From: an uncultured Alphaproteobacteria bacterium
GTDB lineage: Bacteria > Pseudomonadota > Alphaproteobacteria > SHVP01
Length of the DNA stretch: 51,378 bases
NCBI GenBank assembly: GCA_938023835.1
Contig: CALJDF010000021.1
Coordinates: 1-51,378 of the forward strand
Direction of reading: 5' to 3'
The position numbers and the translations under genes are program-made. Within the stretch, counting starts at the first letter, position 1; each line of letters begins with the position of its first letter. Positions 1,069 to 49,005 of the stretch are shown here, in pieces. Under the pieces are notes generated by a model. The model did not search any database. It was not told the origin of the DNA and worked only from the letters and a program-made list of their open reading frames with translations.

Positions 1069-1079
1069 GGAGAAGACCA

Positions 1080-2051: not shown

Positions 2052-2052
2052 G

Positions 2053-2589
2053 TCACAACGCCAGGCGCATCGCGATGCGGTGATCGGGCATCGGCAGGTA
2101 ACGCCGCTGTTTGTCGAGATCGCCCTGCACGGTCGGGCCGACTTGATCGGCGGGGATCGTCACGAAGCCGAGCCGCTCGTAGTAGCGCTTGTTCCACGGC
2201 ACGTGATCGTAGGTGGTGAGCACGAGGTCTTCGTGTCCGCGACGACGCGCCATGGCGATGACCTCGGTCATGAGCTGGCCGCCGATGCCTTGGCGTATGT
2301 GGCTCGGCAAAACCGCGATTTGTTCGAGATAGCCGGCGCCCTCGGCCGCGCTCAGCGCGAAGAACCCGACCCGTGCGCCCTTGGCTTTTGTGTCGGCAAA
2401 GACCAAGCCGCCTTGTGCGGCGCATCCCCGCCAGGCGTTTTCTTCGGCCATGAGGAGGGGGTGGTCGTCGCCGAAATCGACGGTGATGCCGACCTCGCCA
2501 TAATGCGCAAAGGCGGCATCGTCGATCTCGAAGGCGGTGGCGACGTCGGCAGGCGTACCGGGTACCAGGATGCAGGGCGTTTTCGTCAT
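2053..2589 (-). CDS. GNAT family N-acetyltransferase
   Basis: Acetyl-CoA motif LEQIAVLPSHIRQGIGGQLM and YYERLGF. Start taken at the ATG giving MTKTPCILV (2589); the ORF extends to 2631. Confidence 0.8.
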   Translation of the reverse strand: MTKTPCILVPGTPADVATAFEIDDAAFAHYGEVGITVDFGDDHPLLMAEENAWRGCAAQGGLVFADTKAKGARVGFFALSAAEGAGYLEQIAVLPSHIRQGIGGQLMTEVIAMARRRGHEDLVLTTYDHVPWNKRYYERLGFVTIPADQVGPTVQGDLDKQRRYLPMPDHRIAMRLAL

Positions 2590-2648
2590 CCCCGGCATTT
2601 CATGGTACGACCGCAGGCGTTGGCAAACCAAATAAGCGAGAGGGCGAA

Positions 2649-3614
2649 ATGGTCAAAGCCGTCGTGATGCATAAACCGGGTGGGCCTGAAGTGCTGCAGT
2701 GGGAAGAGGTCGCGGTCGGCGACCCCGGCACCGGCGAAGCCCGCGTGCGCAACACCGCTGTCGGGCTCAACTTTCTCGATACGCTGTTTCGGTCCGGCGC
2801 CATCCCGATGGACCTGCCGGCCATTCTCGGTTGGGAAGCCGCCGGGGTGGTCGAGGCGATCGGCGGCGGCGTGACCGCCATCGGCCCCGGGATGCGCGTG
2901 GCCTACCACACCCCCAACGGCTGCTATGCCGAGGAACGTCTGATCAAGGCCGACGAATTGGTGCCGTTACCCGAGGCGATCAGCGACGACCAAGGGGCTG
3001 CCGGCATTCTCAAGGGTATGACCGCGCAATACCTGTTGCGCCTTACCACCCGGATCAAAGCGGGCGACACGGTGCTGGTGCATGCCGCGGCCGGCGGGGT
3101 CGGGTTGTTCATGTGTCAGTGGGCCAAGCATCTCGGCGCCACCGTGATCGGCACCGTCGGCACCGACGAGAAAGCCGCGCTGGCCAAGGCGCATGGCTGC
3201 GATCATCCAGTGGTCTATACGCGCGACGACTTTCTGCCCGTGGTTCAAGAGGTGACCGGCGGGGTGGGCTGCGATGCGGTCTATGACAGCGTCGGCGCGG
3301 ACACCATCGAGCGGTCGTGGCAATCGGTGCGGCCGCACGGCACGGTCGCGTCGTTCGGCATGGCCTCGGGGCCGATTACGCCTGAACAACTCGCCAAACA
3401 ACCGACCGACCGCTATTTCATCCGCACCACGTTGCAAAGCTATAACGCGACCCGCGAAGATTTTCTGGCCAACGCCAAGGATTTCTTCGACGTGGTCGAA
3501 AGCGGTGCGGTCAAGGTGACGGTCGGCCAGACGTTTGCGCTGAAGGACGCGGCCAAGGCCCATGCCGCGTTGATCGGGCGCGCGACCACCGGCTCGACGG
3601 TGCTGAGGCCCTAG
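2649..3614 (+). CDS. NADPH:quinone oxidoreductase (MDR), paralogue 3 of 4
   Basis: 321-aa ORF with MVKAVVMHKPGGPEVL, AAAGGVGLFMCQWAKHLGATVIGTVG and GRATTGSTVL. Confidence 0.9.
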   Translation: MVKAVVMHKPGGPEVLQWEEVAVGDPGTGEARVRNTAVGLNFLDTLFRSGAIPMDLPAILGWEAAGVVEAIGGGVTAIGPGMRVAYHTPNGCYAEERLIKADELVPLPEAISDDQGAAGILKGMTAQYLLRLTTRIKAGDTVLVHAAAGGVGLFMCQWAKHLGATVIGTVGTDEKAALAKAHGCDHPVVYTRDDFLPVVQEVTGGVGCDAVYDSVGADTIERSWQSVRPHGTVASFGMASGPITPEQLAKQPTDRYFIRTTLQSYNATREDFLANAKDFFDVVESGAVKVTVGQTFALKDAAKAHAALIGRATTGSTVLRP

Positions 3615-3632
3615 AGCGAACATCGCGCAACG

Positions 3633-4901
3633 ATGAACCTTTCGTCCTTCGGCGGCATCGGGCGGGCGCTCGCGAACCGCAATTACCGCGTTTACAGCTA
3701 TGGCTCGGCGGCGTCGTTGATCGGGACGTGGATGCAACGCGCGGCGGTGGGCTGGCTCGCGTGGGAGCTGACACACGATCCCAAATGGGTCGGCATCGCG
3801 GTGTCGGCCGACTTGTTGCCGACGATTGTCTCGAGCCCGATCGCCGGGGTGTTGGCCGACCGCTTTCATCCCATGCGCATGCTGAAGGTGCTGCAGCTGC
3901 TGGCGGGCCTGCAAGCGGCCGCGCTGGCGGTGCTGACCTTCAGCGGGTTGATCACGATCGAATGGCTGGTCGCGCTGACGGCGGTGCTGGGCGTGGTCAT
4001 GGGGTTCAACCACCCGGTCCGACAAACCACGATCTATTTGCTGGTGCGGCGCGAGGACCTCTCGGCCGCAGTGGCGATGACGTCGGTGATCTTCAACACC
4101 TCGCGCGTCATCGGGCCGGCGATTGCCGGCTTCGTGATTCATTTCGGCGGCGCGGAGTTTGCCTTCGGGCTGAACACGATCTCCTTCATGATCATGCTGG
4201 CGGCGCTGGCGGCGGTGCGCTTGCCGCCGCTGCCGCCACGCACGCGCCCGACGATGAGCGTGTTGGGCGACATCATGGCGGGCTATCGCTACGCGTTCGT
4301 TCATGCCGGGATCGGGCCGACGCTGTTGATCAGTTTGTCGGCGGCATTGTTGGTGCGCCCGGCGGTGGAAATGCTGCCGGCCTTTGTCGGGCAGATCTTC
4401 GAAGGCGGGGCGGATTCGCTGGGGCTGATCTTGGCCGCCAACGGGGTCGGCGCGATGTTGGCGGGGATTTGGCTGGCTTGGCGGGGCAGCGCCGAAGGGC
4501 TTGTGCCGGTCGCGATCTGGAGCGCGGTGCTGGCCGCCGTCGCGCTCGTCGGCTTGGCGGCGAGCGACACCTTCTGGCTCGGCACCGCGTTCGTCTTCGT
4601 GCTCGGGATCGCGATGTCGTTACGCGGCACCGCGACCCAAACGCTGATCCAAAACGCGGTCGATCCCGAGATGCGCGGCCGGGTGCTGAGCCTCAATTCG
4701 TTGATCTTCAACGCCGGCCCCGCAGTGGGTGCGTTCACGCTGGGGCTGATCGCCTCGTGGGCCGGGCTGCAGCCGCCGCTTTATGTCGCGGCCGTGCTCT
4801 CGCTCGGGGTGTGGCTGTGGGCTTGGCTGCGGCGCGACCGGTTGGCCGCGGCCCTGGAAGGGCCCGACACCCGCGAACGGCGCGCCGACGCGGGTGCATG
4901 A
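3633..4901 (+). CDS. MFS transporter (12-TM, EntS/MFS_3-like)
   Basis: 422-aa hydrophobic ORF. Has an N-terminal NRNYRVYSYGSAASLIGTWMQ and multiple predicted TM helices. The antisense 445-aa ORF is Arg-rich junk. Confidence 0.85.
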   Translation: MNLSSFGGIGRALANRNYRVYSYGSAASLIGTWMQRAAVGWLAWELTHDPKWVGIAVSADLLPTIVSSPIAGVLADRFHPMRMLKVLQLLAGLQAAALAVLTFSGLITIEWLVALTAVLGVVMGFNHPVRQTTIYLLVRREDLSAAVAMTSVIFNTSRVIGPAIAGFVIHFGGAEFAFGLNTISFMIMLAALAAVRLPPLPPRTRPTMSVLGDIMAGYRYAFVHAGIGPTLLISLSAALLVRPAVEMLPAFVGQIFEGGADSLGLILAANGVGAMLAGIWLAWRGSAEGLVPVAIWSAVLAAVALVGLAASDTFWLGTAFVFVLGIAMSLRGTATQTLIQNAVDPEMRGRVLSLNSLIFNAGPAVGAFTLGLIASWAGLQPPLYVAAVLSLGVWLWAWLRRDRLAAALEGPDTRERRADAGA

Positions 4902-4972
4902 CAGGTGCCCTTGCGGCTCGGATTTGCTACCAACGGCGCTAAGCAACGCGCAACACAATCGGGAGAGACGGC

Positions 4973-5944
4973 ATGACCAAGGCAATCCGCGTCTACGAGG
5001 CCGGCGGGCCCGAGGTGCTCACGTGGGAAGACGTCGATGTGCCCGCCCCCGGCGCGGGCGAGGCGCTGGTGCGCCAGACCGCGGCGGGGTTGAACTTCAT
5101 CGATACCTACCAGCGCTCGGGGCTCTATCCGATGACGCTGCCGGCGATCATGGGCAACGAGGGTGCCGGCGTGGTCGAGGCCGTCGGCGAGGGCGTGACC
5201 GAGGTGCAGCCGGGCGACCGCGTCGCCTATCACAGCGCGCCGGGCGCCTATGCCGAACAACGCATCGTGCCGGCCTGGCTGCTGGCCAAATTGCCCGACG
5301 GCATTTCCGATCAACAAGGCGCGTCGATGATGCTCAAGGGCGGCACCGCGCAATACCTGCTGCGCCAGATCTACGAGGTGAAGGCCGGCGACACGATCGT
5401 CATCCATGCCGCTGCGGGCGGCGTCGGGTTGATTGCCTGCCAATGGGCCAAGCATTTGGGGGCGACGGTGATCGGCACGGTGGGCTCGGACGAGAAAGCC
5501 GCGCTGGCCAAGGCGCATGGCTGCGATCATCCGATCGTCTATACCCGCGAGGACTTTACCGCGCGGGTGCGCGAGCTGACCGACGGCAAGGGCGTACCGG
5601 TGGTGTACGATTCGGTGGGCAAAGACACCTTCATGGGCTCGCTCGATTGCCTGCAGCCGCGCGGGTTGATGGTGACCTTCGGCAATGCGTCAGGCCCGCC
5701 CGATCCGCTCAACGTGCTGGCGCTATCGCAAAAGGGCTCGTTGTTCCTGACCCGCCCGACCCTGGGACACTACACGCCCGACCATGCAGCGGTGGTGAAA
5801 GTCGCAAACGATTTGTTCGACGTGGTGTCGTCAGGGGCAGTCAAGATCGAGATCAACCAAACCTACGCCCTCAAAGATGCGGCCCAAGCGCATCGCGATC
5901 TCGAATCGCGCAAGACCACAGGCTCGACCGTCTTTACGATTTAG
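4973..5944 (+). CDS. NADPH:quinone oxidoreductase (MDR), paralogue 4 of 4
   Basis: 323-aa ORF with MTKAIRVYEAGGPEVL, AAAGGVGLIACQWAKHLGATVIGTVG and ALKDAAQAHRDLESRKTTGSTVF. The 3' end overlaps the convergent channel gene by 11 nt. Confidence 0.9.
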   Translation: MTKAIRVYEAGGPEVLTWEDVDVPAPGAGEALVRQTAAGLNFIDTYQRSGLYPMTLPAIMGNEGAGVVEAVGEGVTEVQPGDRVAYHSAPGAYAEQRIVPAWLLAKLPDGISDQQGASMMLKGGTAQYLLRQIYEVKAGDTIVIHAAAGGVGLIACQWAKHLGATVIGTVGSDEKAALAKAHGCDHPIVYTREDFTARVRELTDGKGVPVVYDSVGKDTFMGSLDCLQPRGLMVTFGNASGPPDPLNVLALSQKGSLFLTRPTLGHYTPDHAAVVKVANDLFDVVSSGAVKIEINQTYALKDAAQAHRDLESRKTTGSTVFTI

Positions 5945-9078: not shown

Positions 9079-9150
9079 AACAGCTCTATTGCTGTGCATC
9101 GAAGCACATCCTATTTTCCATATCAACAACGAACACATGGAGCCGACGAG

Positions 9151-9450
9151 ATGACCGCTACGTACTTGGACAACGCCCCGACAAGCCGGCACAGCCCGGT
9201 CACGCGGGGTGACGTGGTGGATCACGTGGCTCATGCGGCTGCAGCGATCGCCCGTGCCTCCCTCCGGCCGGTCGCTGCGGTCGTCGCTTCCAACCGCGCC
9301 AAAGTCACCACGGCGCGACTTGCTGGCCTGGATCGGCGCCTTATGCGCGACATCGGGGTCAACCACCGCGACGAGGTTTTGCTGGCGGCCCAGCGTCGGC
9401 AAACGAACAAGCGTTTTTGGGACCGCCGAAAAGAACGGCCTGACGTTTAG
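9151..9450 (+). CDS. DUF1127 domain-containing small protein
   Basis: ATG at 9151 preceded by GGAG (9139-9142). Contains ARLAGLDRRLMRDIGVNHRDEV, which matches the DUF1127 signature (L..LD..L.DIG..R.E). Divergent from the LysR gene. Confidence 0.55.
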   Translation: MTATYLDNAPTSRHSPVTRGDVVDHVAHAAAAIARASLRPVAAVVASNRAKVTTARLAGLDRRLMRDIGVNHRDEVLLAAQRRQTNKRFWDRRKERPDV

Positions 9451-9478
9451 GCCCTCGGGCCGGGAAGTGAGGTACACC

Positions 9479-9751
9479 ATGAAAATGTTTCGCCGGTCTC
9501 TGTTGATCGCCGGACTCATTGGAGGGGTTGCGCTGTCGGCTTTGCCGGCCCACGCGCAAAACACGTGCTTCATTCGCGATCAGGCGATCGAGAACCTAAA
9601 GACGAGTTATGGCGAGGAAGTCGAGGCCCGTGGCCTGTCGAACGACGGCAAGGTCATGTTCGAACTCCTCACCAGCGAAGACGGCTCGTGGACGATGTTG
9701 ATGACCCACGCCGACGGCAAGACCTGCTTGGTCGGTTCGGGCCAATCGTGA
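9479..9751 (+). CDS. Small secreted hypothetical protein (signal peptide, two Cys)
   Basis: MKMFRRSLLIAGLIGGVALSALPAHA-QNTC is a Sec signal with an AHA-Q cleavage site. The mature part is about 65 aa with Cys in NTCF and KTCL. Confidence 0.6.
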   Translation: MKMFRRSLLIAGLIGGVALSALPAHAQNTCFIRDQAIENLKTSYGEEVEARGLSNDGKVMFELLTSEDGSWTMLMTHADGKTCLVGSGQS

Positions 9752-9812
9752 ACAGCGGTGACCGCGATGAAAGCCAAGGGTCCCGCGGTCTAAGGGCTGC
9801 GAACCCGGCGGG

Positions 9813-12374: not shown

Positions 12375-13628
12375 CTAGGTGTTCATCGAGTCGAAGAACT
12401 CGTCGTTGTTCTTGGTTGCCTTGAGTTTGTCGAGCAAGAACTCCATCGCGTCGGTCGTGCCCATCGGCATCAAGATGCGGCGCAACACCCACATCTTCGA
12501 CAGCGTGCCCTTGTCGACCAGCAGTTCTTCGCGGCGGGTGCCCGACTTGGTGATGTCGAGCGCCGGGAAGGTGCGTTTGTCGGCAAGCTTGCGATCGAGA
12601 ATGATTTCCGAGTTACCGGTGCCCTTGAATTCTTCGAAGATCACCTCGTCCATGCGGCTGCCGGTATCGATCAGCGCGGTGGCGATGATGGTCAGCGAAC
12701 CGCCCTCTTCGATGTTACGGGCCGCGCCAAAGAAGCACTTGGGGCGTTGCAGTGCGTTGGCGTCGACGCCACCCGTGAGCACCTTGCCCGACGAGGGCAC
12801 AACGCTGTTGTAGGCGCGCGCGAGACGGGTGATCGAATCCAACAAGATCACGACGTCGCGCTGGTGTTCGACGAGGCGCTTGGCTTTTTCGATCACCATC
12901 TCGGCCACCTGCACGTGGCGCACGGCAGGTTCGTCGAAGGTCGAACTGATGACCTCGCCTTTGACCGAGCGGTCCATGTCGGTCACTTCTTCGGGCCGCT
13001 CGTCGATCAGCAGCACGATGAGATAGACCTCGGGATGGTTCGAGGTAATCGAATGCGCCACGTTTTGCAGCAGCATCGTTTTACCGGTGCGCGGCGGCGA
13101 CACGATCAGACCGCGCTGGCCCTTGCCGAGCGGCGAAATCAAATCGATGACGCGACACGACGGATCGGCTTTGGGATCTTCGCGCTCGAGGGTCAGGCGC
13201 TCTTCGGGATAAAGCGGGGTGAGGTTGTCGAAGTTGAGCTTGTGGCGGCTCTTTTCGGGTTCCTCGAAATTGATCGCCGAGACCTTGAGCAGGGCAAAGT
13301 AGCGCTCGCCCTCTTTGGGGGCGCGTATTTCGCCTTCGACGGTATCGCCGGTGCGAATGCTAAAGCGCCGGATCTGGCTCGGACTGACATAGATGTCGTC
13401 GGGCCCGGCGAGGTAGTTCGATTCGGGCGAGCGGAGAAATCCGAAGCCGTCCTGGAGAACCTCGAGAACCCCGATGCCGGTGATCTCGACGTCTTTCTCA
13501 GCGAGCTGTTTGAGAATCGCGAACATCATGTCTTGCTTGCGCAAGGTGCTCGCGTTTTCGACCTCTAGCTCCTCGGCGTAGGCGAGCAGATCGGTCGGAG
13601 ATTTGGCCTTTAGTTCCTGGAGATTCAT
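12375..13628 (-). CDS. rho: Transcription termination factor Rho
   Basis: [27 protein letters not shown], the RNA-binding domain, and Walker [20 protein letters not shown]. Length 417 aa. Confidence 0.98.
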
Positions 13629-13827
13629 GTGATCTCTATTTTTTCAGTCTACGAAGGGAGCGGCGAGGGCTGACTAACTTGATCTCGAATGCGGCCGAAT
13701 GGGCCGGGGAAAGCAAGTCAGCGTCGCTGGAGGTGGGGTGGGCCCCAGTAACCGGGGCCTTCTGAGGGCCGAAGGATTGTCGAAACCCCCGACGAAGTCA
13801 AATGAAGATTGCGGCGGGGTCTGCGCC

Positions 13828-14274
13828 CTAGAACGGTTTGGTCACGATCATGATCACGATGATCACCATCAGGACCGTCGGTACCTCGTTGACCCGTTTG
13901 TAAAAGCGGCGCGAATGGCGGTTCACGTCCTTCTCGAAATCGCGGCGCCAGCGCGACAGGTTGCCGTGAAACCAAAACATCGCCGTCAGGGCCGCAACCT
14001 TGACCCACACCCAGCCGGTCGCCAAATCGACAATGCCGGGGGTCAGGGCCAACAAAACCCCGAAGACCACCGCCGAGATCATCGCCGGATTGATGATGCC
14101 GCGCAGCAAGCGGCGCTCCATCACCTTGAAGGTCTCGGACTGCACCGAGCCCGGTTCGGCGTCGGCGTGATAGACGTAAAGCCGCGGCAAATAGAGCATG
14201 CCCGCCATCCAGGCGATCACCGAAATGATGTGCAGCGCTTTGATCCAGAGATAGGCATCCGTCAGGACCGTCAT
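13828..14274 (-). CDS. hemJ: Protoporphyrinogen IX oxidase HemJ (CopD-like, UPF0093)
   Basis: LWIKALHIISVIAWMAGMLYLPRLYVYH with four TM helices. The ATG at 14274 overlaps the hemH stop (ATGA). Confidence 0.85.
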   Translation of the reverse strand: MTVLTDAYLWIKALHIISVIAWMAGMLYLPRLYVYHADAEPGSVQSETFKVMERRLLRGIINPAMISAVVFGVLLALTPGIVDLATGWVWVKVAALTAMFWFHGNLSRWRRDFEKDVNRHSRRFYKRVNEVPTVLMVIIVIMIVTKPF

Positions 14275-15308
14275 GCCGCCGCCCCCATGGCGACCGGACA
14301 GCCGGCATGGCCCGACGGGCACAGGCGACCCCCGCCATGGCTACACAAGGCCGGATCGTTGCGCGATGCCATCGCGGTGACGATGTCTTGCAGTGCCTCG
14401 ACAAACGCTGGCTGCGTGCCCAGCGCCGGAACCCGGATGTAGCGCGGCACGCCTGCATCGTCGGCGAGCGCACGGTACTCGATATCCAATTCGACCAAGG
14501 TCTCGGAATGCTCGGAGACAAACGCGATGGGCACCACGATAAGGCCCGTGCCGTCGCGCCCGGCCGCTTTGATTTCATCTTCGGTGGCGGGCCCGACCCA
14601 TTTCAACGGGCCGACCCTACTTTGGAAACAAACCCGCCACTGGGTGTCGTCGAGACCGACCGCGGCGGCGATCGCGGCGGCACCTTGTTCCACTTGCCAA
14701 ACGTAGGGATCGCCGCTTTCGACGATGCGTTCGGGCAACCCGTGCGCCGAGAACAACACTCGGACCGGTTGGTCGGGCGTTTCCGCCAGCGCGTCTTTGA
14801 TGAGCGCCGCATAGCCTGCGACGAAACCGGATGCCGTGGGATAGCAGCACACCGCCCGGGTCGGCACCGAGAGGCCGACGGCGCGCGCGGCCTTGTGCCA
14901 GGCATCGAGCGAGGACTGCGTCGTGGTGGTCGAGAATTGCGGATAGAGCGGCAGTAGCAAGACGTGATCGGCACCCCATTCTTTGACGTCGCGCGCGGTT
15001 TGATCGCTCATCGGATGCCAGTAGCGCATTGCGATGAACACGCGCATCTCCGGGTTGCCGAGTGCATCCGTCAGCGCCGCAGCTTGTTTCTCGGTTTCCG
15101 GCAGGATCGGGGAGCGGCCACCGATCTCGCGGTAGATCTCGGCAGCCGTGGGCGCCCGCCGTCGCGCGATCAACGACGCGAGCAGCGGTCGGATCGGCCA
15201 CGGCACCCGCAAGATCGCCGGATCGCCAAACAGATTGCGTAGGAAGCCGCGCACCGCCTCGGGCCGATCGGGCCCACCCAAATTGAACAGGACAACAGCT
15301 GTCTTCAT
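14271..15308 (-). CDS. hemH: Ferrochelatase
   Basis: MKTAVVLFNLGGPD, LLPLYPQFSTTT and AFVSEHSETLVELD. There is a C-terminal Cys-rich tail, CSHGGGRLCPSGHAGC. Confidence 0.95.
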   Translation of the reverse strand: MKTAVVLFNLGGPDRPEAVRGFLRNLFGDPAILRVPWPIRPLLASLIARRRAPTAAEIYREIGGRSPILPETEKQAAALTDALGNPEMRVFIAMRYWHPMSDQTARDVKEWGADHVLLLPLYPQFSTTTTQSSLDAWHKAARAVGLSVPTRAVCCYPTASGFVAGYAALIKDALAETPDQPVRVLFSAHGLPERIVESGDPYVWQVEQGAAAIAAAVGLDDTQWRVCFQSRVGPLKWVGPATEDEIKAAGRDGTGLIVVPIAFVSEHSETLVELDIEYRALADDAGVPRYIRVPALGTQPAFVEALQDIVTAMASRNDPALCSHGGGRLCPSGHAGCPVAMGAAA

Positions 15309-16336
15309 GGGGCCGAGCGTACCGCGTCGACCAACGCCGCGACATGCTCCGGCGGCGTGTGCGGCAAGATGCCGTGTCCCAAGTTGAAGACGAATGGACC
15401 GTCCTTGAAGGCCGACACGATGCGGCGGATCTCGTTGGTCATGGCCGTGCCGCCGGCAACCAGCATCAACGGATCAAGATTGCCTTGCACCGTGCACTGG
15501 TTCTGGATGGCTTGCCGCGCCCAGCCCACCGGCACGGCACTGTCGAGACCAACGGCCTGAACCCCGGTGCGCGCCGCATAGTCAGCCAAGGCCAAACCGG
15601 CGCCGCGGGGAAACCCGATCACCGGTACATCGGGATGGGATTCGCGCAGCGCCGCGACGATGCGGTGCGCCGGTTCGATACACCACCGCGCAAAGGCCGT
15701 TTCCGGCAACGCACTGGCCCAGGTATCGAACAGCTGCACGGCCTCGGCACCGGCATCGATCTGGCGCGCCAAATACGCAATCGTCGCCTCGGTAATCAGG
15801 TCGATCAGCCGGCCGAATTCTTCGGGGTCGCGAAATGCCCAGACCTTGGTGTTTTCGAAATTGCGGCTGCCCCCGCCTTCGACCATGTAGGTCGCAACGG
15901 TCCATGGCGCCCCCGCAAACCCGATCAACGCCGTCTTGCTATCCAGGTGACCGCGCACCCGCTCGACGGTCTCATAGATCGGTTCTAGGCGATCGTGTAG
16001 GCCATCCATGGCGAGACCGGCCAAGGCTTGGCCATCACGAATTGGATCGAGGATCGGCCCTTCGCCCTCGGCAAACCGCAGGTCTTGGCCAAGGGCCTGG
16101 GGGATCAGCAAGATGTCGGCAAACAAGATCGCTGCGTCGAACCCGAACCGCCGGATCGGCTGCAAGGTAACGTCGGCGGCGCGTACCGGGTCGTAACACA
16201 AATCGAGAAAGCTGCCGGCCTCGGCGCGTAGGGCGCGATACTCGGGCAGATAGCGCCCGGCTTGCCGCATCAGCCAAATCGGTGGCACCGCCTGAACATC
16301 GCCGGTCAGGGCGCAAAGAAAGGGCTTTGATGTCAT
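15305..16336 (-). CDS. hemE: Uroporphyrinogen decarboxylase
   Basis: PPIWLMRQAGRYLPEYR and FNLGHGI motifs. Start taken at the ATG at 16336 (the ORF track starts at a TTG two codons upstream). The stop overlaps the hemH start (ATGA). Confidence 0.95.
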   Translation of the reverse strand: MTSKPFLCALTGDVQAVPPIWLMRQAGRYLPEYRALRAEAGSFLDLCYDPVRAADVTLQPIRRFGFDAAILFADILLIPQALGQDLRFAEGEGPILDPIRDGQALAGLAMDGLHDRLEPIYETVERVRGHLDSKTALIGFAGAPWTVATYMVEGGGSRNFENTKVWAFRDPEEFGRLIDLITEATIAYLARQIDAGAEAVQLFDTWASALPETAFARWCIEPAHRIVAALRESHPDVPVIGFPRGAGLALADYAARTGVQAVGLDSAVPVGWARQAIQNQCTVQGNLDPLMLVAGGTAMTNEIRRIVSAFKDGPFVFNLGHGILPHTPPEHVAALVDAVRSAP

Positions 16337-16360
16337 GGGCAAATCGAACCAACGTTGTCT

Positions 16361-16390
16361 CTACTCTTATATACAGAATTATAAGAATCT
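16361..16390. other. AT-rich patch, candidate DNA unwinding element
   Basis: ctactcttatatacagaattataagaatct has 23 A/T in 30 bp, within a GC-rich window. Confidence 0.4.
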
Positions 16391-16407
16391 GTAGTGGTTG
16401 TAGTGGT
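16390..16407. repeat. Perfect tandem direct repeat TGTAGTGGT x2
   Basis: Read directly: 16390-16398 and 16399-16407 are identical. Confidence 0.9.
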
Positions 16408-16418
16408 GCGCTGAGTCC

Positions 16419-16427
16419 TGGGGATAA
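16419..16427 (-). promoter_or_regulatory. DnaA-box-like 9-mer TTATCCCCA
   Basis: Reverse complement of tggggataa. One mismatch to TTATCCACA. Confidence 0.5.
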
Positions 16428-16500
16428 GAAACTGTCCCCAAAGTTTACTGTTACACACAGCGTGCTGTGGGCGATGCGGACGAGCGGGACAACTAGCTGC

Positions 16501-16509
16501 TTATCCCGA
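16501..16509 (+). promoter_or_regulatory. DnaA-box-like 9-mer TTATCCCGA
   Basis: Two mismatches to TTATCCACA. Shares the TTATCCC core with the other two boxes. Confidence 0.45.
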
Positions 16510-16549
16510 CCAAGCGGTCGTTTGGAGGTGCTGTGAATTGGGTGAGTGG

Positions 16550-16558
16550 TTGGGATAA
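16550..16558 (-). promoter_or_regulatory. DnaA-box-like 9-mer TTATCCCAA
   Basis: Reverse complement of ttgggataa. Two mismatches to TTATCCACA. Confidence 0.45.
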
Positions 16559-16737
16559 GTCGGGTCGAGAAAGCTGCCCGGAAAGTTGTCCGATGCCGCG
16601 TATAAAATTCTTCCACGTGGCCAAACCGTTCTCATCGAATCCCTGGCATCGGGGAGGAAACACCCGCCCGCCGTGGGTCTGTTGATTGTCCGGTCGTTTC
16701 ATCATACTTGTGCACAGCTTTTGGCCCGGGAGCAGCG

Positions 16738-17559
16738 GTGAGCGACAAGACTTTTAAATTGCATTTGGTTTCGGACGCGACCGGCGAAACGTTGCAGGTC
16801 TTGGCCCGCGCCGCGATTACCCAGTTCGAAGAATATGAACCGGTCGAGTTCATCTGGTCGATGATTCGCAGCTCGGCGCAATTGCAACTGGCGATCGACG
16901 GCATTCAGCAAGATCCCGGCATTGTTTTGTTTACGCTGGTCGATCAGACGTTGCAGCGTGATCTCGTCAATGCTTGCCGCAGTCTCGAGATGCCGTGCGT
17001 TGATGTGCTCGATCCGACGATCGCTACCTTGCGGGAATTCCTTCATACCGAATCCAAGAACCAGCCCGGCCGGCAACACACGCTCGACGACGAGTATTTC
17101 GAGCGCATCGATGCCATGCACTTCTTTTTGCAGCATGACGATGGTCAATCGCTGGAAACCATTCACGAAGCCGATGTCGTGTTGGTCGGCGTGTCACGGA
17201 CCTCGAAGACGCCGACCGCCATGTATCTTGCTAATCGCGGCATTAATGCCGCCAATGTTCCCTTGGTTTCGGGCCAACCGCCGCCCGACGCGTTGGAGAC
17301 CCTCAAGGGGCCTTTGGTGGTCGGGCTGGTGAACAGCGTCAAGCGATTGGTCGAGTTACGCCGCAATCGCTTGTTGCAGCTCAACGAGAACGACGACACG
17401 CCCTATGCCGACGAGGGCGAGATCAAAAAGGAAATCGCGGCGGCGCGCCGGTTGTTCACGCGCCACCAATGGCCGGTGATCGATACCACTGGGCGCTCCA
17501 TCGAAGAGACCGCCGCGGCCATCATGAAACTCTATTCCAATTGGACGCGGCCGGCATGA
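16738..17559 (+). CDS. DUF299 bifunctional kinase/pyrophosphorylase (pyruvate phosphate dikinase / PEP synthase regulatory protein family)
   Basis: FKLHLVSDATGETL and a P-loop VVLVGVSRTSKTP. GTG at 16738 is preceded by GGGAG (16728-16732); the ORF track starts at a TTG at 16708. Confidence 0.88.
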   Translation: MSDKTFKLHLVSDATGETLQVLARAAITQFEEYEPVEFIWSMIRSSAQLQLAIDGIQQDPGIVLFTLVDQTLQRDLVNACRSLEMPCVDVLDPTIATLREFLHTESKNQPGRQHTLDDEYFERIDAMHFFLQHDDGQSLETIHEADVVLVGVSRTSKTPTAMYLANRGINAANVPLVSGQPPPDALETLKGPLVVGLVNSVKRLVELRRNRLLQLNENDDTPYADEGEIKKEIAAARRLFTRHQWPVIDTTGRSIEETAAAIMKLYSNWTRPA

Positions 17560-18152
17560 CAGCGTTGATCTTGGCCTCCGCCAGTGCCGCGCGGCGGCAA
17601 ATGCTGCAAAACGCGGGCATCGATTTCGCGGTCCAGCCTGCGCGGGTCGACGAATCGGCAATCAAAGAAGCCATGCAGGCCGACGGCGCCCACCCCTCGG
17701 ACGCGGCCCAAGCGCTGGCCGATCTCAAGGCGATGCGCGTATCGCCGGAACCGGCAGCGGCGTTGGTCATCGGCGCCGATCAAGTCTTGGAATGCGACGG
17801 CACGTGGTTCGACAAACCGGACACCGTTGCCACGGCACAACGTCAATTGGAGGCCTTGTCGGGCCGCACGCATCACCTCCATACCGCGGCCGCTGTCGTG
17901 AAAGAGGGTGGCGTGATCTGGCGCGAGGCCACCGACGTGGCGCTGACGATGCGGCCGCTCAGCGCCGCATTCATTGCCGACTACTTAGAGGCCGCCGGCG
18001 ACACCGTGTTGCAGTCCGTGGGGGGCTATCAAATCGAAGGGCGCGGGGTGCAGCTTTTTGCCGCGCTGCGTGGCGACTTCTTTTCGATCCTCGGCCTGCC
18101 GCTGCTGCCGCTGTTGGAGTTCTTGCGCGGCCATGATGCGGTGCCGGCATGA
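17556..18152 (+). CDS. maf: Maf-like nucleoside triphosphate pyrophosphatase
   Basis: MTALILASASAARRQMLQNAGIDF and GGYQIEG motifs. ATGA overlap with the upstream stop. Confidence 0.9.
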   Translation: MTALILASASAARRQMLQNAGIDFAVQPARVDESAIKEAMQADGAHPSDAAQALADLKAMRVSPEPAAALVIGADQVLECDGTWFDKPDTVATAQRQLEALSGRTHHLHTAAAVVKEGGVIWREATDVALTMRPLSAAFIADYLEAAGDTVLQSVGGYQIEGRGVQLFAALRGDFFSILGLPLLPLLEFLRGHDAVPA

Positions 18153-18985
18153 TTTCGGGCAAGGCGAGGATTGCAGGGGTGATGGGCTGGCCGGTCGACC
18201 ATTCGCGCTCGCCGCGGCTACATAACTATTGGCTCGATCGTCATGGGATCGATGCCGCGTACGTGCCGCTCGCGGTGGCCCCCGAAACCCTCGAACAGGC
18301 GGTGCGCGGGCTGCCCGCCCTGGGGTTTGCCGGCGCCAACGTCACCATCCCGCATAAAGAAGCGGTGTTGCCGTTCCTCGATCGGATCGACCCCGCGGCC
18401 GAACGCATCGGCGCGGTCAACACCATCGTGATCAAAGACGGCCGCCTGCACGGCAGCAACACCGATGGCTTCGGCTTTCTCGAAAACCTTAAAGCGGGCG
18501 CGCCGCAGTGGCGGGGCGAGGCAGGGCCGGCGGTGATCGTCGGCGCCGGTGGTGCGGCCAAGGCGGTGGCTTGGGCGCTGATCGATGCCGGGGTGCCGAC
18601 GTTACGGATCGTCAACCGCAACGCAACGCGCGCCGAAGACCTGGCCGCCGCGTTGGGGCCCAAGGCGCGCGCGATGGTGTGGGAGTCGCGGGCCGATGTG
18701 CTGGGCGAGGCGGCGCTTTTGGTCAATACCAGCGCCTTGGGGATGACCGGGCAACCGGGGCTGGACCTCGATCTGGCGCGGCTGCCGGCGACAGCGGTGG
18801 TGAACGACATTGTTTATCAGCCCCTGGAAACGCCGCTGCTTGCGGCAGCCCGTACCCGCGGTAACACCGCGGTCGAGGGCATCGGCATGCTTTTGCACCA
18901 GGGGCGGCCGGGGTTCGCGGCCTGGTTCGGGGTCGACCCGACGGTCGATGCCAGTCTGCGCGACCACGTTTTGGCCGGCGATTGA
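18149..18985 (+). CDS. aroE: Shikimate dehydrogenase
   Basis: GWPVDHSRSPRLHN, GANVTIPHKE and VGAGGAAKAV. ATGA overlap with maf. Confidence 0.95.
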   Translation: MISGKARIAGVMGWPVDHSRSPRLHNYWLDRHGIDAAYVPLAVAPETLEQAVRGLPALGFAGANVTIPHKEAVLPFLDRIDPAAERIGAVNTIVIKDGRLHGSNTDGFGFLENLKAGAPQWRGEAGPAVIVGAGGAAKAVAWALIDAGVPTLRIVNRNATRAEDLAAALGPKARAMVWESRADVLGEAALLVNTSALGMTGQPGLDLDLARLPATAVVNDIVYQPLETPLLAAARTRGNTAVEGIGMLLHQGRPGFAAWFGVDPTVDASLRDHVLAGD

Positions 18986-19608
18986 CTGCGCGCACCGTGA
19001 CATTGGGCCTGACGGGCTCGATCGGCATGGGCAAGAGCGAAGCCGCGCGCATGTTCCGCCGCCTCGGCGTGCCGGTGTTCGACTCCGATGCCACGGTGCA
19101 CCGGTTGCTGGGGCCGGGCGGGGCTGCGGTGGCGGCGGTCGAGGCCGCGTTCCCGGGCGTGGTCAAGGATGGCGCGGTGGATCGCAAAGCGCTGGGCGCG
19201 GCGGTGTTCGGCAAGCCAGACGATCTGCGCCGGCTTGAGGCCATCTTGCATCCGATGGTGCGGGCCGCGCGGGCGACGTTTATGCGTCGGGCACAGGCGC
19301 GGCGCGACCGGCTTGTGGTGTTCGATGTGCCGTTGCTGTTCGAAACCGGCGGCGAACGCGATTGCGATGCGGTGATGGTGGTGAGCGCGCCGGCGTTCGT
19401 GCAGCGCGCTCGCGTTCTTGCGCGGCCCGGCATGACGCCGGAGAAGTTCGCCGCCATCCTCGACCAACAAGTGCCCGATGGGGAAAAGCGGCGCCGCGCC
19501 GACTTCGTTGCGCCGACGGGCATGGGCAAGCGCGTGACCTTGAACGCGATTCGGCAGGCCATCACAATGCTGATCGGCAACCAAGAGGAGCCCCCTTGTC
19601 CGACGTGA
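18982..19608 (+). CDS. coaE: Dephospho-CoA kinase
   Basis: LGLTGSIGMGKS P-loop and FDVPLLFE. Start is either the TTG at 18982 (TTGA overlap with aroE) or the GTG at 18997. Confidence 0.92.
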   Translation: MTARTVTLGLTGSIGMGKSEAARMFRRLGVPVFDSDATVHRLLGPGGAAVAAVEAAFPGVVKDGAVDRKALGAAVFGKPDDLRRLEAILHPMVRAARATFMRRAQARRDRLVVFDVPLLFETGGERDCDAVMVVSAPAFVQRARVLARPGMTPEKFAAILDQQVPDGEKRRRADFVAPTGMGKRVTLNAIRQAITMLIGNQEEPPCPT

Positions 19609-20288
19609 CCAAAGCCGATCGCGAGATCGTCTTCGATACCGAAACCACCGGCCTATCACCGGAGGACGGCCACCGCGTGGTGGAGATCGGCTGTGTCGAG
19701 CTGATCAACCACGTACCGACCGGCAACAACTGGCATCGCTACATCAACCCGCAGCGCTACATGCCGGGCGAGGCGTTTCGGGTGCATGGCCTCAGCGAGG
19801 AGTTCCTGGCCAAGCAGCCGACGTTTGCCGAGATCGTCGACGATTTCTTGGAATTCGTTGGGCGAACGCCGCTGGTCGCGCACAACGCGAGCTTCGATAT
19901 CGGCTTTATCAACGCAGAGCTTGCCCTGCTCGAACGACCGCCGCTCGATGTCGCGCGGATCGTCGACACGGTGGCGATCGCGCGGCGCAAGTATCCCGGC
20001 GCCCAGGCCAGCCTCGATGCGCTGTGCCGGCGCTTTGACGTCGATTTGTCGGCGAGGACCAAGCATGGCGCGTTGCTCGACGCCGAATTGCTGGCCGAGG
20101 TTTACCTTGAGCTAATTGGCGGTCGGCAGCCGACTCTGGGTCTGGCTGTCGACCTCGATACCGTGCCCATCGATGCGGCACCGACCAAGACCTGGCCCGA
20201 GCGCGACTTCGCGCCGAGCGACGCCGAACTCGCGGCGCACGCGGCCTTTTTGGAGAAGGTCAGCGAGCCGATCTGGCGCGCGACCTGA
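19596..20288 (+). CDS. dnaQ: DNA polymerase III epsilon subunit (3'-5' proofreading exonuclease)
   Basis: Exo motifs IVFDTETTGL, VAHNASFDIGF and HGALLDAELLAEVY. TTG at 19596 lies 5 nt after AGGAG (19586-19590); an alternative GTG at 19605 overlaps the coaE stop. Confidence 0.92.
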   Translation: MSDVTKADREIVFDTETTGLSPEDGHRVVEIGCVELINHVPTGNNWHRYINPQRYMPGEAFRVHGLSEEFLAKQPTFAEIVDDFLEFVGRTPLVAHNASFDIGFINAELALLERPPLDVARIVDTVAIARRKYPGAQASLDALCRRFDVDLSARTKHGALLDAELLAEVYLELIGGRQPTLGLAVDLDTVPIDAAPTKTWPERDFAPSDAELAAHAAFLEKVSEPIWRAT

Positions 20289-24006: not shown

Positions 24007-24377
24007 CGCCGTTCGGTGCCCGGGTGCGCGCCCTTCGCCGGGCCCAGGGTGTCACCCTCAAGAAGATGGCGGCCGACCTGCAGATCTCCGAGGCGTATCT
24101 CTCGGCCCTCGAACACGGCCGGCGCGGTCGACCGACGCAGATTCTGGTGCGCCAGATTTGCGGCTACTTCAACATTATTTGGGACGAGGCCGAGGCGCTG
24201 GAAAACCTGGCGCGGCTGTCGCATCCGCGGGTCGTGGTCGATACCGCGGGCTTGTCGCCCACGGCGACGGAGCTTGCCAATCGACTGGCGGAAGAAATTG
24301 GCGGCTTGGATGAAGAGGCGCTGGATGCGTTGTTAGGCGCGCTGGACGCTGCGGCGGCGCCGCGCCCTAGAGAATAA
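24003..24377 (+). CDS. XRE-family helix-turn-helix protein
   Basis: ATG at 24003 (ATGA overlap with the smr stop) gives [42 protein letters not shown]. Confidence 0.8.
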
Positions 24378-25677
24378 ATTTCGACAGGTCGGAATCTTTG
24401 GCGAGATCGGAGACGTGCTCGCGCACATACGCCGCGTCGATGGTGATGGTTTCGCCGGGTTGATCGGTGGCGGTGTAGCTGACCTCGTCCAACAGACGTT
24501 CCATCACCGTGTGGAGACGGCGGGCGCCGATGTTTTCCACGGTCGCGTTGACCTCGGCGGCGACGCTGGCGATTTCGTCGATCGCTTCGTCGGCGAAGTT
24601 CAGGGTGACGTTTTCGGTGCCGATCAGCGCCGTGTATTGACGAATGAGGCTGGCCTCGGGCTCGGTCAGAATGCGACGGAAATCGTCGCGCGTCAGGGCC
24701 TTGAGCTCGACGCGGATGGGCAGGCGGCCTTGGAGTTCCGGCAACAAGTCAGACGGCTTGGCAAGCTGGAAGGCGCCCGAGGCGACAAACAGGATGAAAT
24801 CGGTGCGCACCGTGCCGTGTTTGGTGGCGACTTGAGTCCCCTCGATCAGCGGCAACAAGTCGCGCTGCACGCCTTCGCGGCTGACGTCGGCGCCCTGGCG
24901 ATCTTGCCGGGCCGTGATCTTGTCGATCTCATCGAGAAACACGATGCCGTGTTGCTCGACCCGCTCGATGGCTTCTTTGACCAGTTTGTCTTGGTCGACC
25001 AGCTTGTCGCTCTCTTCTTCCATCAACAGGTCATACGATTCGATCACCTTGAGGCGCTTGGGTTTCGAGCGCTGGCCGAAGGCTTTGCCGAGCATGTCGT
25101 TGAGGTTGATCATGCCCATCTGGGCGCCGGGCATCCCCGGTACATCGAAGGTCGGCATGCCGCCGCCGCCGGAGTCTTGCACGTCGATCTCGATCTCTTT
25201 GTCGTCAAGCTCGCCCTCGCGGAGTTTCTTGCGAAAAGCCTGCCGGGTTGTTTCGCTGGCATCACCGCCGACCAAGGCGTCGAGGACGCGCTCTTCGGCC
25301 GCGAGTTGCGCGCGCGCTTGAACTTCTTCGCGGCGTTGATTGCGGACCATGGTGATGGCGATCTCGACGAGGTCGCGCACGATTTGTTCGACATCGCGGC
25401 CGACGTAGCCCACCTCGGTGAACTTGGTCGCTTCGACCTTGAGGAACGGCGCGTTGGCGAGTTTGGCGAGCCGGCGTGAGATTTCGGTCTTGCCGACACC
25501 GGTCGGGCCGATCATCAGAATATTCTTGGGCACGATTTCTTCGCGCAGGTCTTCGTCGAGCTGCTGGCGGCGCCAGCGGTTGCGCAACGCGATGGCGACC
25601 GCGCGCTTGGCGTCGTGCTGACCGATGATGTGACGGTCGAGCTCGGAGACGATCTCGCGCGGACTGAATTCGGACAT
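24367..25677 (-). CDS. hslU: ATP-dependent protease ATPase subunit HslU
   Basis: [15 protein letters not shown] and Walker [18 protein letters not shown]. Length 436 aa. Confidence 0.98.
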
Positions 25678-25680
25678 AAA

Positions 25681-26229
25681 CTAGACGCTTTCGACGATGA
25701 CGTTTTCGTTGGTATAGACACAAATATCGGCGGCGATTTTCATTGCGCGGCGGGCGATGGCCTCGGCATCCATATCGTCGCGATCGATCAGCGCCCGCGC
25801 CGCCGCCAGCGCGAAATTGCCGCCCGAGCCGATGCCGATCACGCCGTCGTCGGGCTCCAACACGTCACCCGATCCGGTGAGGACCAGGCTCACGTTCTCG
25901 TTGGCCACCGCCATCATCGCTTCGAGGCGGCGCAGGTAGCGATCGGTGCGCCAATCCTTGGCCAGTTCGACACAGGCGCGCTCCAACTGGCCGCCGTGCT
26001 TTTCGAGCTTGCCTTCGAGGCGTTCGAACAGCGTGAAGGCATCCGCGGTGGCGCCGGCAAAACCGACCACAACGCTGCCGTCGGCCAGGCGCCGAACCTT
26101 GCGGGCCTGGGATTTCATCACCGTCTGGCCGACCGAAACCTGGCCGTCGCCGGCAATCACCGCTTTACCGTCTTTGCGCACCGATAGGATGGTGGTGCCA
26201 TGCCAATTGGGGCTCGGTTCATGGGCCAT
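25681..26229 (-). CDS. hslV: ATP-dependent protease subunit HslV
   Basis: ATG at 26229 gives [32 protein letters not shown], with the catalytic Thr in the GTTIL context. The upstream part of the ORF is not coding. Confidence 0.95.
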
Positions 26230-26280
26230 GTGGCTAATCCCTTGGAAAAACGCGCGGGCGCGGCGCGCCGGAAGGCCGAG

Positions 26281-26308
26281 ATGTAAGGATTTGCGCCGTG
26301 CGGTCAAG
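26281..26308 (-). promoter_or_regulatory. Candidate sigma32 (RpoH) promoter for hslVU: CTTG-N16-CCTTACAT
   Basis: On the minus strand, CTTG at 26308-26305 and CCTTACAT at 26288-26281, about 50 nt upstream of the hslV ATG. Confidence 0.3.
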
Positions 26309-26389
26309 AGCAACCGGTGGTCACATGCGGTCAATCCTGCTATATGGGCGCCGCGCTGACCTCGGCCCCCAAAACAAGAGGAGCGGCCC

Positions 26390-26989
26390 ATGCGCCAGGC
26401 CACTGTCGAACGAAAAACCAAGGAAACCGCCATCACCGCCACCGTCAATCTCGACGGCAGCGGGGTCTATACGGTGTCGACCGGGATTGGGTTCCTCGAT
26501 CATATGCTGGAGCAGCTCTCGCGGCACTCGCTCATCGATCTTGAGGTGACGGGCAAAGGCGACACCCACATCGATTTTCACCACACGGTGGAGGATAGCG
26601 GCATCGTGATCGGCGAGGCGGTCAGCCAGGCGCTGGGCGATCGCGCCGGCATCGTGCGCTATGGCACGGCCTATATTCCGTTCGACGAGACGCTGACGCG
26701 GGTCACGCTCGATTGCTCGAACCGGCCCTACACGGTGTGGCACGTCGACTTCCCGACCTCGAAGCTGGGCGAGATGGACACCGAATTGTTCCGCGAGTGG
26801 TTCCAGGCCTTTGCGCAAGGCGCAGGGCTGACGCTGCATGTCGAAAACCTGTACGGGCGCAACAGCCATCACATTGCCGAGTCTTGTTTTAAAGGGCTGG
26901 CGCGCGCATTGCGCCAAGCGCTCGTTGTCGATCCCCGCCAAGCACAGACGGTACCCTCGACCAAGGGCGTGCTTGGCGGCTCGCTCTAA
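26390..26989 (+). CDS. hisB: Imidazoleglycerol-phosphate dehydratase
   Basis: [31 protein letters not shown] and NSHHIAES motifs. AGAGGAG RBS. Confidence 0.96.
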
Positions 26990-43858: not shown

Positions 43859-43879
43859 CGGCAATCGCCGTTCGACGAC

Positions 43880-43913
43880 AAAGGCCGGAAAATTTCCCGG
43901 CCTTTTTCTTTTT
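43880..43913. terminator. Bidirectional rho-independent terminator between convergent genes
   Basis: AAAGGCCGG-aaaatttc-CCGGCCTTT (9-bp stem) followed by TTCTTTTT. An A-tract on the other side serves the minus-strand CBS gene. Confidence 0.7.
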
Positions 43914-43929
43914 GAGGTGGCGCCCGCGC

Positions 43930-44373: not shown

Positions 44374-44481
44374 GTCACTCCCTTGTTTTCGGCGTGCTTC
44401 GCCACGCTTCTCGAAGCGGTAGTTTATCACGAAACCAAGCGGTCCCGTGCCGAGCGGAATTAACCGCTTTAGGTCAATGCG

Positions 44482-46873: not shown

Positions 46874-46911
46874 CTCGGCGGTCGCATTGCTGTTTTTCCC
46901 CCAAAACGCAG

Positions 46912-46951
46912 TTCCGCCCCGCGCGCAAGATCGTTACGGCACGGGGCGGAA
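46912..46951 (-). terminator. Intercistronic hairpin between dnaK and dnaJ (possible partial terminator)
   Basis: 10-bp stem TTCCGCCCCG/CGGGGCGGAA with a 20-nt loop. On the mRNA strand it is followed by CTGCGTTTTGG. Confidence 0.35.
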
Positions 46952-46984
46952 GAGCGTTTCATCGTCTTACCGACGAGGTTCGGT

Positions 46985-48910
<1,926 letters not shown>

Positions 48911-49005
48911 GTTCTTCACTCCTATTCGGCGAATCCGCCTTTGGGCCCCAATTCGGCAGCCCGGGTGTGGATTCCCTGCGGGAATATCCGCTAAGGCCGA
49001 GGGTT

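Follow-up and report, generated by a model that had tools for sequence, protein, structure and literature searches.

The question raised by this locus is whether the non-coding gap between two divergent genes, hemE and a DUF299 gene, is the place where chromosome replication starts in an uncultured marine alphaproteobacterium. The gap lies in contig CALJDF010000021.1, and by the window we mean the whole stretch of that contig that was analysed, 51 kb with a GC content of about 63%, in which the products of open reading frames were assigned by Pfam. A first-pass annotation had put forward a divergent gap of roughly 400 bp as a candidate origin, and had pointed out that its location matches that of known hemE-linked origins. 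We find that the gap measures 401 bp (16337-16737, 53% GC) and that it is very probably the chromosomal replication origin (oriC), of the hemE/DUF299 type without CtrA sites. The location, an enrichment of DnaA sites, the least stable duplex of the window, an unwinding module kept throughout the clade and a step in the corrected GC skew together lead to this reading, and all of them support the earlier proposal. The gap and its two flanks are:

16337-16737, no strand: candidate oriC, the entire non-coding gap, proposed from motif enrichment and from a divergent arrangement kept in 24 related loci
15305-16336, minus strand: hemE (uroporphyrinogen decarboxylase), the left flank, Pfam URO-D with E=1.8e-119, ATG at 16336, synteny kept in relatives
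16738-17559, plus strand: DUF299 / Kinase-PPPase gene (homologue of RP001, CCNA_00001 and yqfL), the right flank, PF03618 with E=2.5e-89

On the left, hemE is the last gene of the minus-strand string rho-hemJ-hemH-hemE (12375-16336, hemJ being UPF0093). On the right, the DUF299 gene has a GTG start at 16738 behind a GGAG ribosome-binding site at 16729-16732, and it is the first gene of the plus-strand string DUF299-maf-aroE-coaE-dnaQ (16738-20288). The arrangement rho-hemJ-hemH-hemE / DUF299-maf-aroE-coaE-dnaQ-secB is the conserved cluster that flanks alphaproteobacterial origins, which bears out the earlier argument from location. The Caulobacter origin Cori lies between hemE and duf299 (PMC6393856), the Azospirillum oriC recorded in DoriC lies between yqfL and hemE with parAB 12.4 kb from the origin, and hemE is an indicator gene of Ori-Finder, with hemE-linked origins predicted across the Sphingomonadaceae. 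The proposed origin sits where alphaproteobacterial origins are already known, and a standard origin finder using hemE as its indicator gene would probably call this gap. The first-pass annotation had also argued that the neighbouring genes are co-oriented with diverging forks. All genes are indeed on the minus strand for 4 kb to the left and on the plus strand for 4 kb to the right, but these are just two operons and the argument is a weak one; over the whole window the strands are mixed, with 8 plus and 8 minus genes on the left and 21 plus and 17 minus on the right.

The DUF299 protein was used to scan genome and metagenome collections, which yielded 33 loci (L numbers below denote related loci). 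In 24 of these hemE and DUF299 are divergent neighbours separated by a gap of 375-481 bp, and these represent 22 distinct lineages when the window is counted. DUF299 identity among these loci goes as low as 54%, and very A/T-rich genomes, with gaps of 16-21% GC, also have the arrangement. Judged by MltA, the nearest named relatives (Skermanella, Azospirillaceae) are about 54% identical. One of the loci, L003 (8500-10900), comes from the 885-kb contig JAYQJC010000005.1, where hemE, hemH, DUF299, aroE, coaE and dnaQ carry frameshifts in comparison with the near-identical L001; these look like indel errors of a long-read assembly.

DnaA-box-like sites were scored against the 9-mer consensus TTATCCACA, and chance expectations were taken from 5000 dinucleotide-preserving shuffles of the gap itself. 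The gap holds six 9-mers within two mismatches of the consensus where a mean of 1.02 is expected (P=0.0004 for six or more), and it is the densest 401-bp stretch of the window for such sites. Of the four copies of TTATCCC in the 51 kb, three are inside the gap, a number that arose in 0 of the 5000 shuffles. The three 9-mers that contain them (TTATCCCCA, TTATCCCGA and TTATCCCAA) had been reported before as one to two mismatches from the DnaA box, and all were recovered at the same positions. The hexamer TCCCCA, the W-box of Caulobacter, where the G-box is TGATCCACA (PMC4285127), is present twice in the gap against 0.10 expected at the window rate. It also forms the core of TGTCCCCA at 16433-16440, a sequence likened earlier to the weak Caulobacter DnaA sites and reproduced here. 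The sites in the gap are the following:

16419-16427, minus strand: DnaA box A, TTATCCCCA, 1 mismatch, predicted anchor box
16432-16440, plus strand: box B, cTGTCCCCA, with 3 mismatches and the W-box core TCCCCA (16435-16440), facing away from box A
16451-16459, plus strand: box C, TTACACACA, 2 mismatches, position kept
16466-16474, minus strand: box D, TCGCCCACA, 3 mismatches, degenerate in this genome
16501-16509, plus strand: box TTATCCCGA, 2 mismatches, lineage-specific
16532-16540, minus strand: position of box E, CAATTCACA, 3 mismatches here
16550-16558, minus strand: box F, TTATCCCAA, 2 mismatches, partly conserved (TTATCCCGA in L005)

The enrichment is not peculiar to the window. Over the 22 lineages, 9-mers with at most one mismatch are found at 4.41 per kb in the gaps and at 0.16 per kb in 251 kb of flanking DNA, a 28-fold difference, and those with at most two mismatches at 14.9 per kb in the gaps versus 1.8 per kb in the flanks. 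An unbiased count of 8-mers in the 22 gaps leads to the same motif, with TAATCCCC in 12 gaps, ATCCCCAT in 10 and TATCCCCA in 9, at or near the top of the count, while no 8-mer in 200 shuffled sets exceeded 8 gaps; the top 8-mers found de novo are of the type T[T/A]ATCCCC(A). Gaps of the close lineages are 45-68% identical to that of the window overall, with conserved islands at about nine box positions. In the alignment of these lineages the box positions are kept while the sequences drift around the DnaA consensus, which is the pattern expected from turnover of functional weak DnaA sites. Box A, which has a C at position 7, keeps its position as T[T/A/G]ATCCCCA in nearly all lineages. Box B reads TTGTCCCCA, TTACCCACA or TTGTCCACA in relatives, and box C reads TTATGCACA in L008-L010 and TTACGCACA in L005. 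The alignment columns of box D hold TAATCCACA in L001, TGATCCACA in L006 and TCGTCCACA in L008, and the conserved block of box E, CTGTGAAT, reads TTATTCACA in L008 and TGATTCACA in L002 and L011. The TTATCCC box at 16501 has no counterpart in the aligned relatives. Two further properties of these sites can be recorded: boxes A and F share an extended context of 17 nt, TGAGTnnTnGGGATAAG (16412-16428 and 16543-16559), and the box at 16501 forms with box F a 13-nt inverted repeat (16500-16512 and 16547-16559) that is 92% complementary, with 34 nt between the arms.

No second candidate origin was found in the window. The next densest stretch for DnaA-like sites, at about 8.9-9.3 kb in the gap between a LysR gene and a glutathione S-transferase (GST) gene, has four sites only, each with two mismatches, at 62% GC and without an A/T element.

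To the left of box A lies what appears to be the unwinding module of the origin:

16355-16394, no strand: A/T-rich region, putative duplex unwinding element (DUE), the least stable duplex of the window
16385-16389, no strand: GAATC (GANTC, possible CcrM site) at the junction of the DUE and the array
16390-16407, plus strand: period-3 T-N-G array, a putative DnaA-trio-like single-stranded DNA (ssDNA) track, TAG TGG TTG TAG TGG in the register 16392-16406
16407-16418, no strand: G+C-rich spacer TGCGCTGAGTCC from the array to box A, 11-12 bp, containing GAGTC

By nearest-neighbour free energy, 16355-16394 includes the lowest-stability 30-, 40- and 60-bp stretch in the 51 kb, with -30.1 kcal/mol over 30 bp against a window mean of -46.1 (standard deviation 3.4). 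The first-pass annotation had counted 23 A/T in the 30 bp of 16361-16390 and suggested an unwinding element there; the count holds, and the patch lies in this least stable duplex. Its nucleotide sequence is almost invariant in the nine lineages nearest to the window. The perfect tandem 9-mer TGTAGTGGT x2 noted earlier at 16390-16407 is likewise real, is reported by TRF too, and amounts to a period-3 T-N-G array in one register. Read 3'->5' the array is GGT GAT GTT GGT GAT, and its T-N-G score is 10/10. The order on the plus strand is A/T patch, GAATC, tandem 9-mer, TGCGCTGAGTCC and TGGGGATAA, the last being box A, so that the array strand reads 5'-array-spacer-TGGGGATAA-3'. The strict composite ATCCCC-N9-15-(CNA)4 is found once in the window against 0.00 expected, and at the gap in 12 loci.

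This predicted module is laid out and oriented like a DnaA-box/DnaA-trio unwinding system (BUS). A BUS consists of a DnaA box, a spacer (mode 10-13 bp), DnaA-trios and A/T-rich DNA, and is written 3'->5' as AATAGGTGT-spacer-GAT (PMC8287927). Canonical DnaA-trios need a central adenine, and a G or T there lowers activity in B. subtilis, where the captured dinucleotide is 3'-GA-5' (PMC10721633). Here the box expected in the orientation 5'-trios-spacer-TGTGGATAA-3' with at most two mismatches is present as TGGGGATAA (one mismatch) 3' of the array, the spacer of 11-12 bp is within the limit of 16 bp, and A/T-rich DNA lies distal to the trios. A BUS on the minus strand was also considered, with five NAN trios, a 15-bp spacer and TTATATACA at 16367, and was set aside as unlikely; its 'box' is inside the A/T patch and has three mismatches in relatives.

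The module is shared across the clade. The array has a T-N-G score of 9/10 or better in 20 of 21 lineages, the 30 bases that precede it include 22 or more A/T, again in 20 of 21, and a [T/C]GGGGAT[T/A/C]A box follows 10-13 bp past the array in most. The order of A/T stretch, T-N-G array, 10-13 bp spacer and TGGGGATNA holds from a gap of 53% GC to one of 16% GC. The outer G and T of the array are invariant across lineages. Its central base varies: L009, L010, L012 and L017 have (TAG)3 arrays, which satisfy the central-adenine rule, while the A/T-rich L019-L023 have (TTG)5-6 arrays with no central A, which break it.

A further line of evidence, not clear-cut in the window, is strand asymmetry. 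The first-pass annotation had proposed that the cumulative GC skew should reach its minimum at 16.3-16.8 kb, and in raw skew this is not seen in the window and is seen only in relatives. We separated the skew at third codon positions (GC3) into a term for gene orientation (-0.106) and a strand-independent term. The latter is +0.019±0.028 to the left of the gap and +0.115±0.018 to the right, a step of +0.096±0.033 (p=0.0055), and among all positions scanned the best-fitting step falls at 16.0-17.0 kb. The same calculation was made on same-contig composites of two relatives, in which loci were paired through orthologues of the leftmost window gene and of MltA (L038 is from the same genome as L005, whereas L034 is a different lineage):

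JAVJOO010000002.1 (GCA_040216735.1, 1.40 Mb), 43.6-kb composite: GC3 skew left -0.100±0.020, right +0.048±0.024, p=1.3e-5
ERZ24794644 NODE_8 (0.62 Mb), 42.5-kb composite: GC3 skew left -0.015±0.024, right +0.080±0.028, p=0.014

In JAVJOO010000002.1 the GC3 skew switches sign with the best step at the gap, the cumulative G-C minimum lies 268 bp from the gap, and the raw skew changes from -0.037 in the 26.5 kb left of the gap to +0.020 in the 16.7 kb right of it. NODE_8 has its best step at the gap without a sign switch, and its cumulative G-C minimum is not at the gap. Nine shorter loci all have their higher raw skew on the right, and in five of the nine a local cumulative minimum is within about 450 bp of the gap. 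The asymmetry of the left flank appears to be lineage-specific, with GCA_040216735.1 showing the negative left flank that is expected.

Several observations weigh against an origin at this place and have to be set beside this evidence. In the window the raw GC skew is positive to either side of the gap, and the cumulative curve, which climbs from the first base, reaches no minimum there. Correction brings the left flank close to zero instead of below it, and the data reject a symmetric sign switch (p=0.0002); L005/L038 and NODE_8 (L035+L041) likewise have left flanks near zero. The step repeated among relatives may in part be gene-specific, since one and the same set of orthologues flanks the gap in every lineage and their composition could add to it. 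None of the boxes is a perfect consensus; the best has one mismatch and several have three. A central adenine is found in just two of the five array triplets, which are not consecutive, where a BUS has at least three consecutive 3'-NAN-5' trios. The dnaA gene is not within the window, and dnaK-dnaJ (45740-48919) and hslU-hslV (24367-26448) are on the minus strand, head-on to the predicted rightward fork.

One rival reading is that the gap is an ordinary divergent promoter or regulatory region, in which DnaA or another factor acts only on transcription, and that the origin is elsewhere, for instance next to dnaA. A perfect hemE TATAAT inside the A/T patch and a conserved 40-bp block upstream of DUF299 would fit such a region, as would the missing raw minimum, the left flank that is not negative and the absence of dnaA from the window. 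It leaves unaccounted for, however, the 8-28-fold enrichment of DnaA sites in 22 lineages, the oriented array-spacer-box module beside the least stable duplex, and a skew step whose best fit falls at the gap in three genomes, one of which also switches sign. Moreover, dnaA is typically not adjacent to oriC in Alphaproteobacteria, and Cori itself has internal promoters, so we consider this explanation very improbable. Slightly less probable still is a relic or secondary origin, that is, an ancestral hemE-linked oriC from which initiation has moved away or which now shares it with another site. Such a history would explain why the skew on the left is not negative (about zero in the window, L005/L038 and NODE_8), and boxes D and E and the position at 16597 are degenerate here and good in relatives. 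Yet this genome has an intact and strongly conserved unwinding module and box A, the significant skew step still maps to the gap, a close relative has the full sign switch, and nothing else in the 51 kb looks like an origin.

The remaining two explanations concern what the conserved sequence might encode. The array read on the minus strand is ACC ACT ACA ACC ACT ACA, six threonine codons (ACN) with the variable base at the wobble position, and could belong to a leader peptide or to an N-terminal extension of HemE. Relatives have ACN there too (ACA in A/T-rich genomes), and the frame is open into the hemE ATG in L001, L005, L006, L008-L011 and L021 and in frame with hemE in several relatives. 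Against this, most lineages, L005 and L008-L011 among them, have no ATG, GTG or TTG between the upstream stop and the threonine run. In the window the frame (16336-16407) is 1 nt off that of hemE and ends in a TGA overlapping the hemE ATG. The URO-D alignment starts at residue 5 counted from a TTG at 16342, which is residue 3 from the ATG at 16336. A stretch that would read 'DSYNS' is invariant in nucleotides, wobble positions included, among lineages whose flanking proteins differ by 10-25%, and such invariance beside the array points to a constraint on DNA and not on a peptide. We therefore rejected a polythreonine leader or extension, on the missing starts, the frame shift of 1 nt and the invariance at the nucleotide level, and regard it as hardly credible. 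A structured non-coding RNA or riboswitch leader has scarcely any probability at all in our judgement. Caulobacter does have a small RNA gene inside Cori and 401 bp would be long enough for one, but the Rfam scan of the window gave no hit at the gathering threshold, RNAalifold on 10 gaps gave a consensus energy of -2.49 kcal/mol for 422 columns, in which the covariation term is negligible, and conservation takes the form of islands of 8-10 nt rather than of paired arms.

If the gap is the oriC, as we consider very probable, initiation may proceed along the following lines, with the features read from the DNA and the actions of the proteins inferred. DnaA would bind a cluster of weak-to-moderate boxes over about 300 bp, comprising boxes A-F and possibly a site at 16708, through the core TCCCCA/TCCACA that is also that of the Caulobacter W- and G-boxes. 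From box A (TTATCCCCA), ATP-DnaA would oligomerise leftwards over the 11-12 bp G+C-rich spacer and extend onto the T/G-rich strand of the array (16392-16406), and the adjoining A/T element (16355-16394) would melt. Transcription of hemE from the TATAAT within the element may aid opening, as reported for Caulobacter. The forks would then leave co-directionally with hemE-hemH-hemJ-rho on the left and with DUF299-maf-aroE-coaE-dnaQ on the right, and CtrA-type repression would play no part.

The array suggests a further proposal, which we make tentatively and think rather doubtful. The origins of this clade may use a variant single-strand DnaA track with a period of three, in which the outer bases are invariant and the central base is free (3'-G-N-T-5'). 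The proposal is prompted by a T-N-G array that ranges from (TAG)3 to pure (TTG)5-6 and stays 10-13 bp from a T[T/A/G]ATCCCCA box in gaps of about 16% to 53% GC. If DnaA does read a T-N-G track, the central-adenine rule of B. subtilis would fail here, and these DnaA proteins would have a different ssDNA-recognition pocket or a second protein would read the array.

Promoters probably coexist with the origin in the gap, as they do in Cori, because a TATAAT lies inside the A/T patch and a near-invariant block of 40 bp precedes DUF299:

16679-16718, plus strand: conserved 40-bp block CTGTTGATTGTCCGGTCGTTTCATCATACTTGTGCACAGC, nearly invariant in close lineages, upstream of DUF299

The perfect TATAAT (minus strand, 16378-16383) is inside the A/T element, 42 nt upstream of the hemE ATG, and is a possible hemE promoter within the DUE. 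The 40-bp block probably acts as promoter or leader of the DUF299 operon. It includes TTGTGCACA (16708-16716), two mismatches from the DnaA consensus, and is possibly a binding site of DnaA or of another protein. A scan of the gap for the sigma-70 consensus gave no promoter match, and a terminator scan of the gap gave one weak terminator-like hairpin, at chance level. For IHF, the strict consensus WATCAANNNNTTR has no match in 16000-17000. The TTAA-N7-TTAA box of CtrA is absent from the whole window, even with one mismatch allowed. Its absence was observed earlier and taken as a departure in the control of the origin; the observation stands, but the departure is not unusual, as lack of CtrA control is the usual state outside Caulobacter (PMC4468827) and no special feature of this origin. 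The three GANTC sites given before, at 16385, 16413 and 16637, are present, but they are not an enrichment (P=0.17). The one at 16385 is the only one of the three that is kept in the close relatives and in L016 and L018.

The wider surroundings of the gap can be described more briefly. Right of dnaQ come secB, fxsA, a Tim44-like gene, mltA, a helix-turn-helix (HTH) gene, hslUV and his genes. Searches of the 51-kb window found none of dnaA, dnaN, parAB and the gid genes, and a tRNA scan of it found no tRNA. In relatives the minus strand carries mnmE (trmE) and gidA (mnmG) some 25 kb to the left of the homologous gap (L034 1-1692, L035 1-1630, L036 1-1630), a position that corresponds to just past the left end of the window; parAB/parS may be further out. 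At 100-5944 the window has four paralogous zinc-type quinone oxidoreductase genes, with a GNAT gene and an MFS_3 transporter gene lying among them, and this array left of rho is kept clade-wide, A/T-rich relatives included (L012 1-3388, L018 1378-5290, L034 5962-15964). The gap between the divergent LysR-type regulator and the GST gene measures 705 bp at 62% GC (9108-9812), and in relatives it holds two small genes of 84-105 aa without a Pfam family (L034 19229-19897, L035 19273-19948). A 552-aa protein (32853-34511) joins a 2Fe-2S ferredoxin domain to an adenylate/guanylate cyclase catalytic domain, and its gene is at the equivalent position in L037, L038, L040 and L041. Two paralogues of about 392 aa, each with a methyltransferase domain dependent on S-adenosylmethionine, lie on opposite strands at 42680-45663 and converge on a small CBS-domain gene.

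An origin at this place would fix the orientation of the replichores and position 1 of the chromosome for an uncultured marine lineage that is known solely from metagenome-assembled genomes, which is useful for genome finishing and for growth-rate estimates from peak-to-trough coverage. It would also strengthen, by about 20 lineages, the case for the hemE/DUF299 gap as the conserved alphaproteobacterial origin and for CtrA control as an addition specific to Caulobacter. The only feature that goes further than routine annotation is the T-N-G array, which is conserved and keeps a fixed distance to the anchor box. Its variants, with A, G, T or C in the centre, form a natural series of DnaA-trios that bears on how strict the central-adenine rule is outside the Firmicutes.

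Comparison with known origins places the gap among those linked to hemE. Compared with the E. coli oriC, it has another genomic context and none of the 13-mer GATC repeats, the IHF consensus site or the SeqA/Dam logic; in the left half of that origin (13-mer DUE and R1) DnaA binds the T-rich strand (PMC5716108). Cori has the same flanking genes and the same extended cluster. Like the gap, it has an A/T element on the hemE side with the hemE promoter inside, weak or moderate DnaA sites with a TCCCCA/TCCACA core, and GANTC; Cori is also known to contain promoters and a small RNA gene (PMC6393856). Unlike Cori, the gap has no CtrA site and no match to the IHF consensus, GANTC is not enriched, and the origin does not visibly reach into the DUF299 coding region. 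The predicted or validated hemE-linked oriCs of Azospirillum, Sphingomonadaceae and Sinorhizobium meliloti likewise adjoin hemE and DUF299, lack CtrA boxes and combine several DnaA boxes of mixed orientation with a DUE. Partition or gid genes are found within tens of kb in both cases, parAB at 12.4 kb in Azospirillum and mnmE-gidA at about 25 kb in the relatives of the window. What sets the present case apart from other hemE-linked oriCs is a different and uncultured lineage and a box A with C at position 7.

The module itself can be compared with the BUS (Richardson 2016; Pelliciari 2021, 2023). A BUS has a co-oriented tandem pair of boxes, whereas the gap has a single anchor box, with neighbouring box B pointing the opposite way. 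The array does not follow the (.A.){3,} rule, with a central A in two of five triplets here and T throughout in the A/T-rich relatives. Both systems nevertheless consist of a box, a G+C-rich spacer, a period-3 array and A/T-rich DNA, and the G that is invariant in the array is at the 3' position of the triplet, the base that is captured together with A in B. subtilis.

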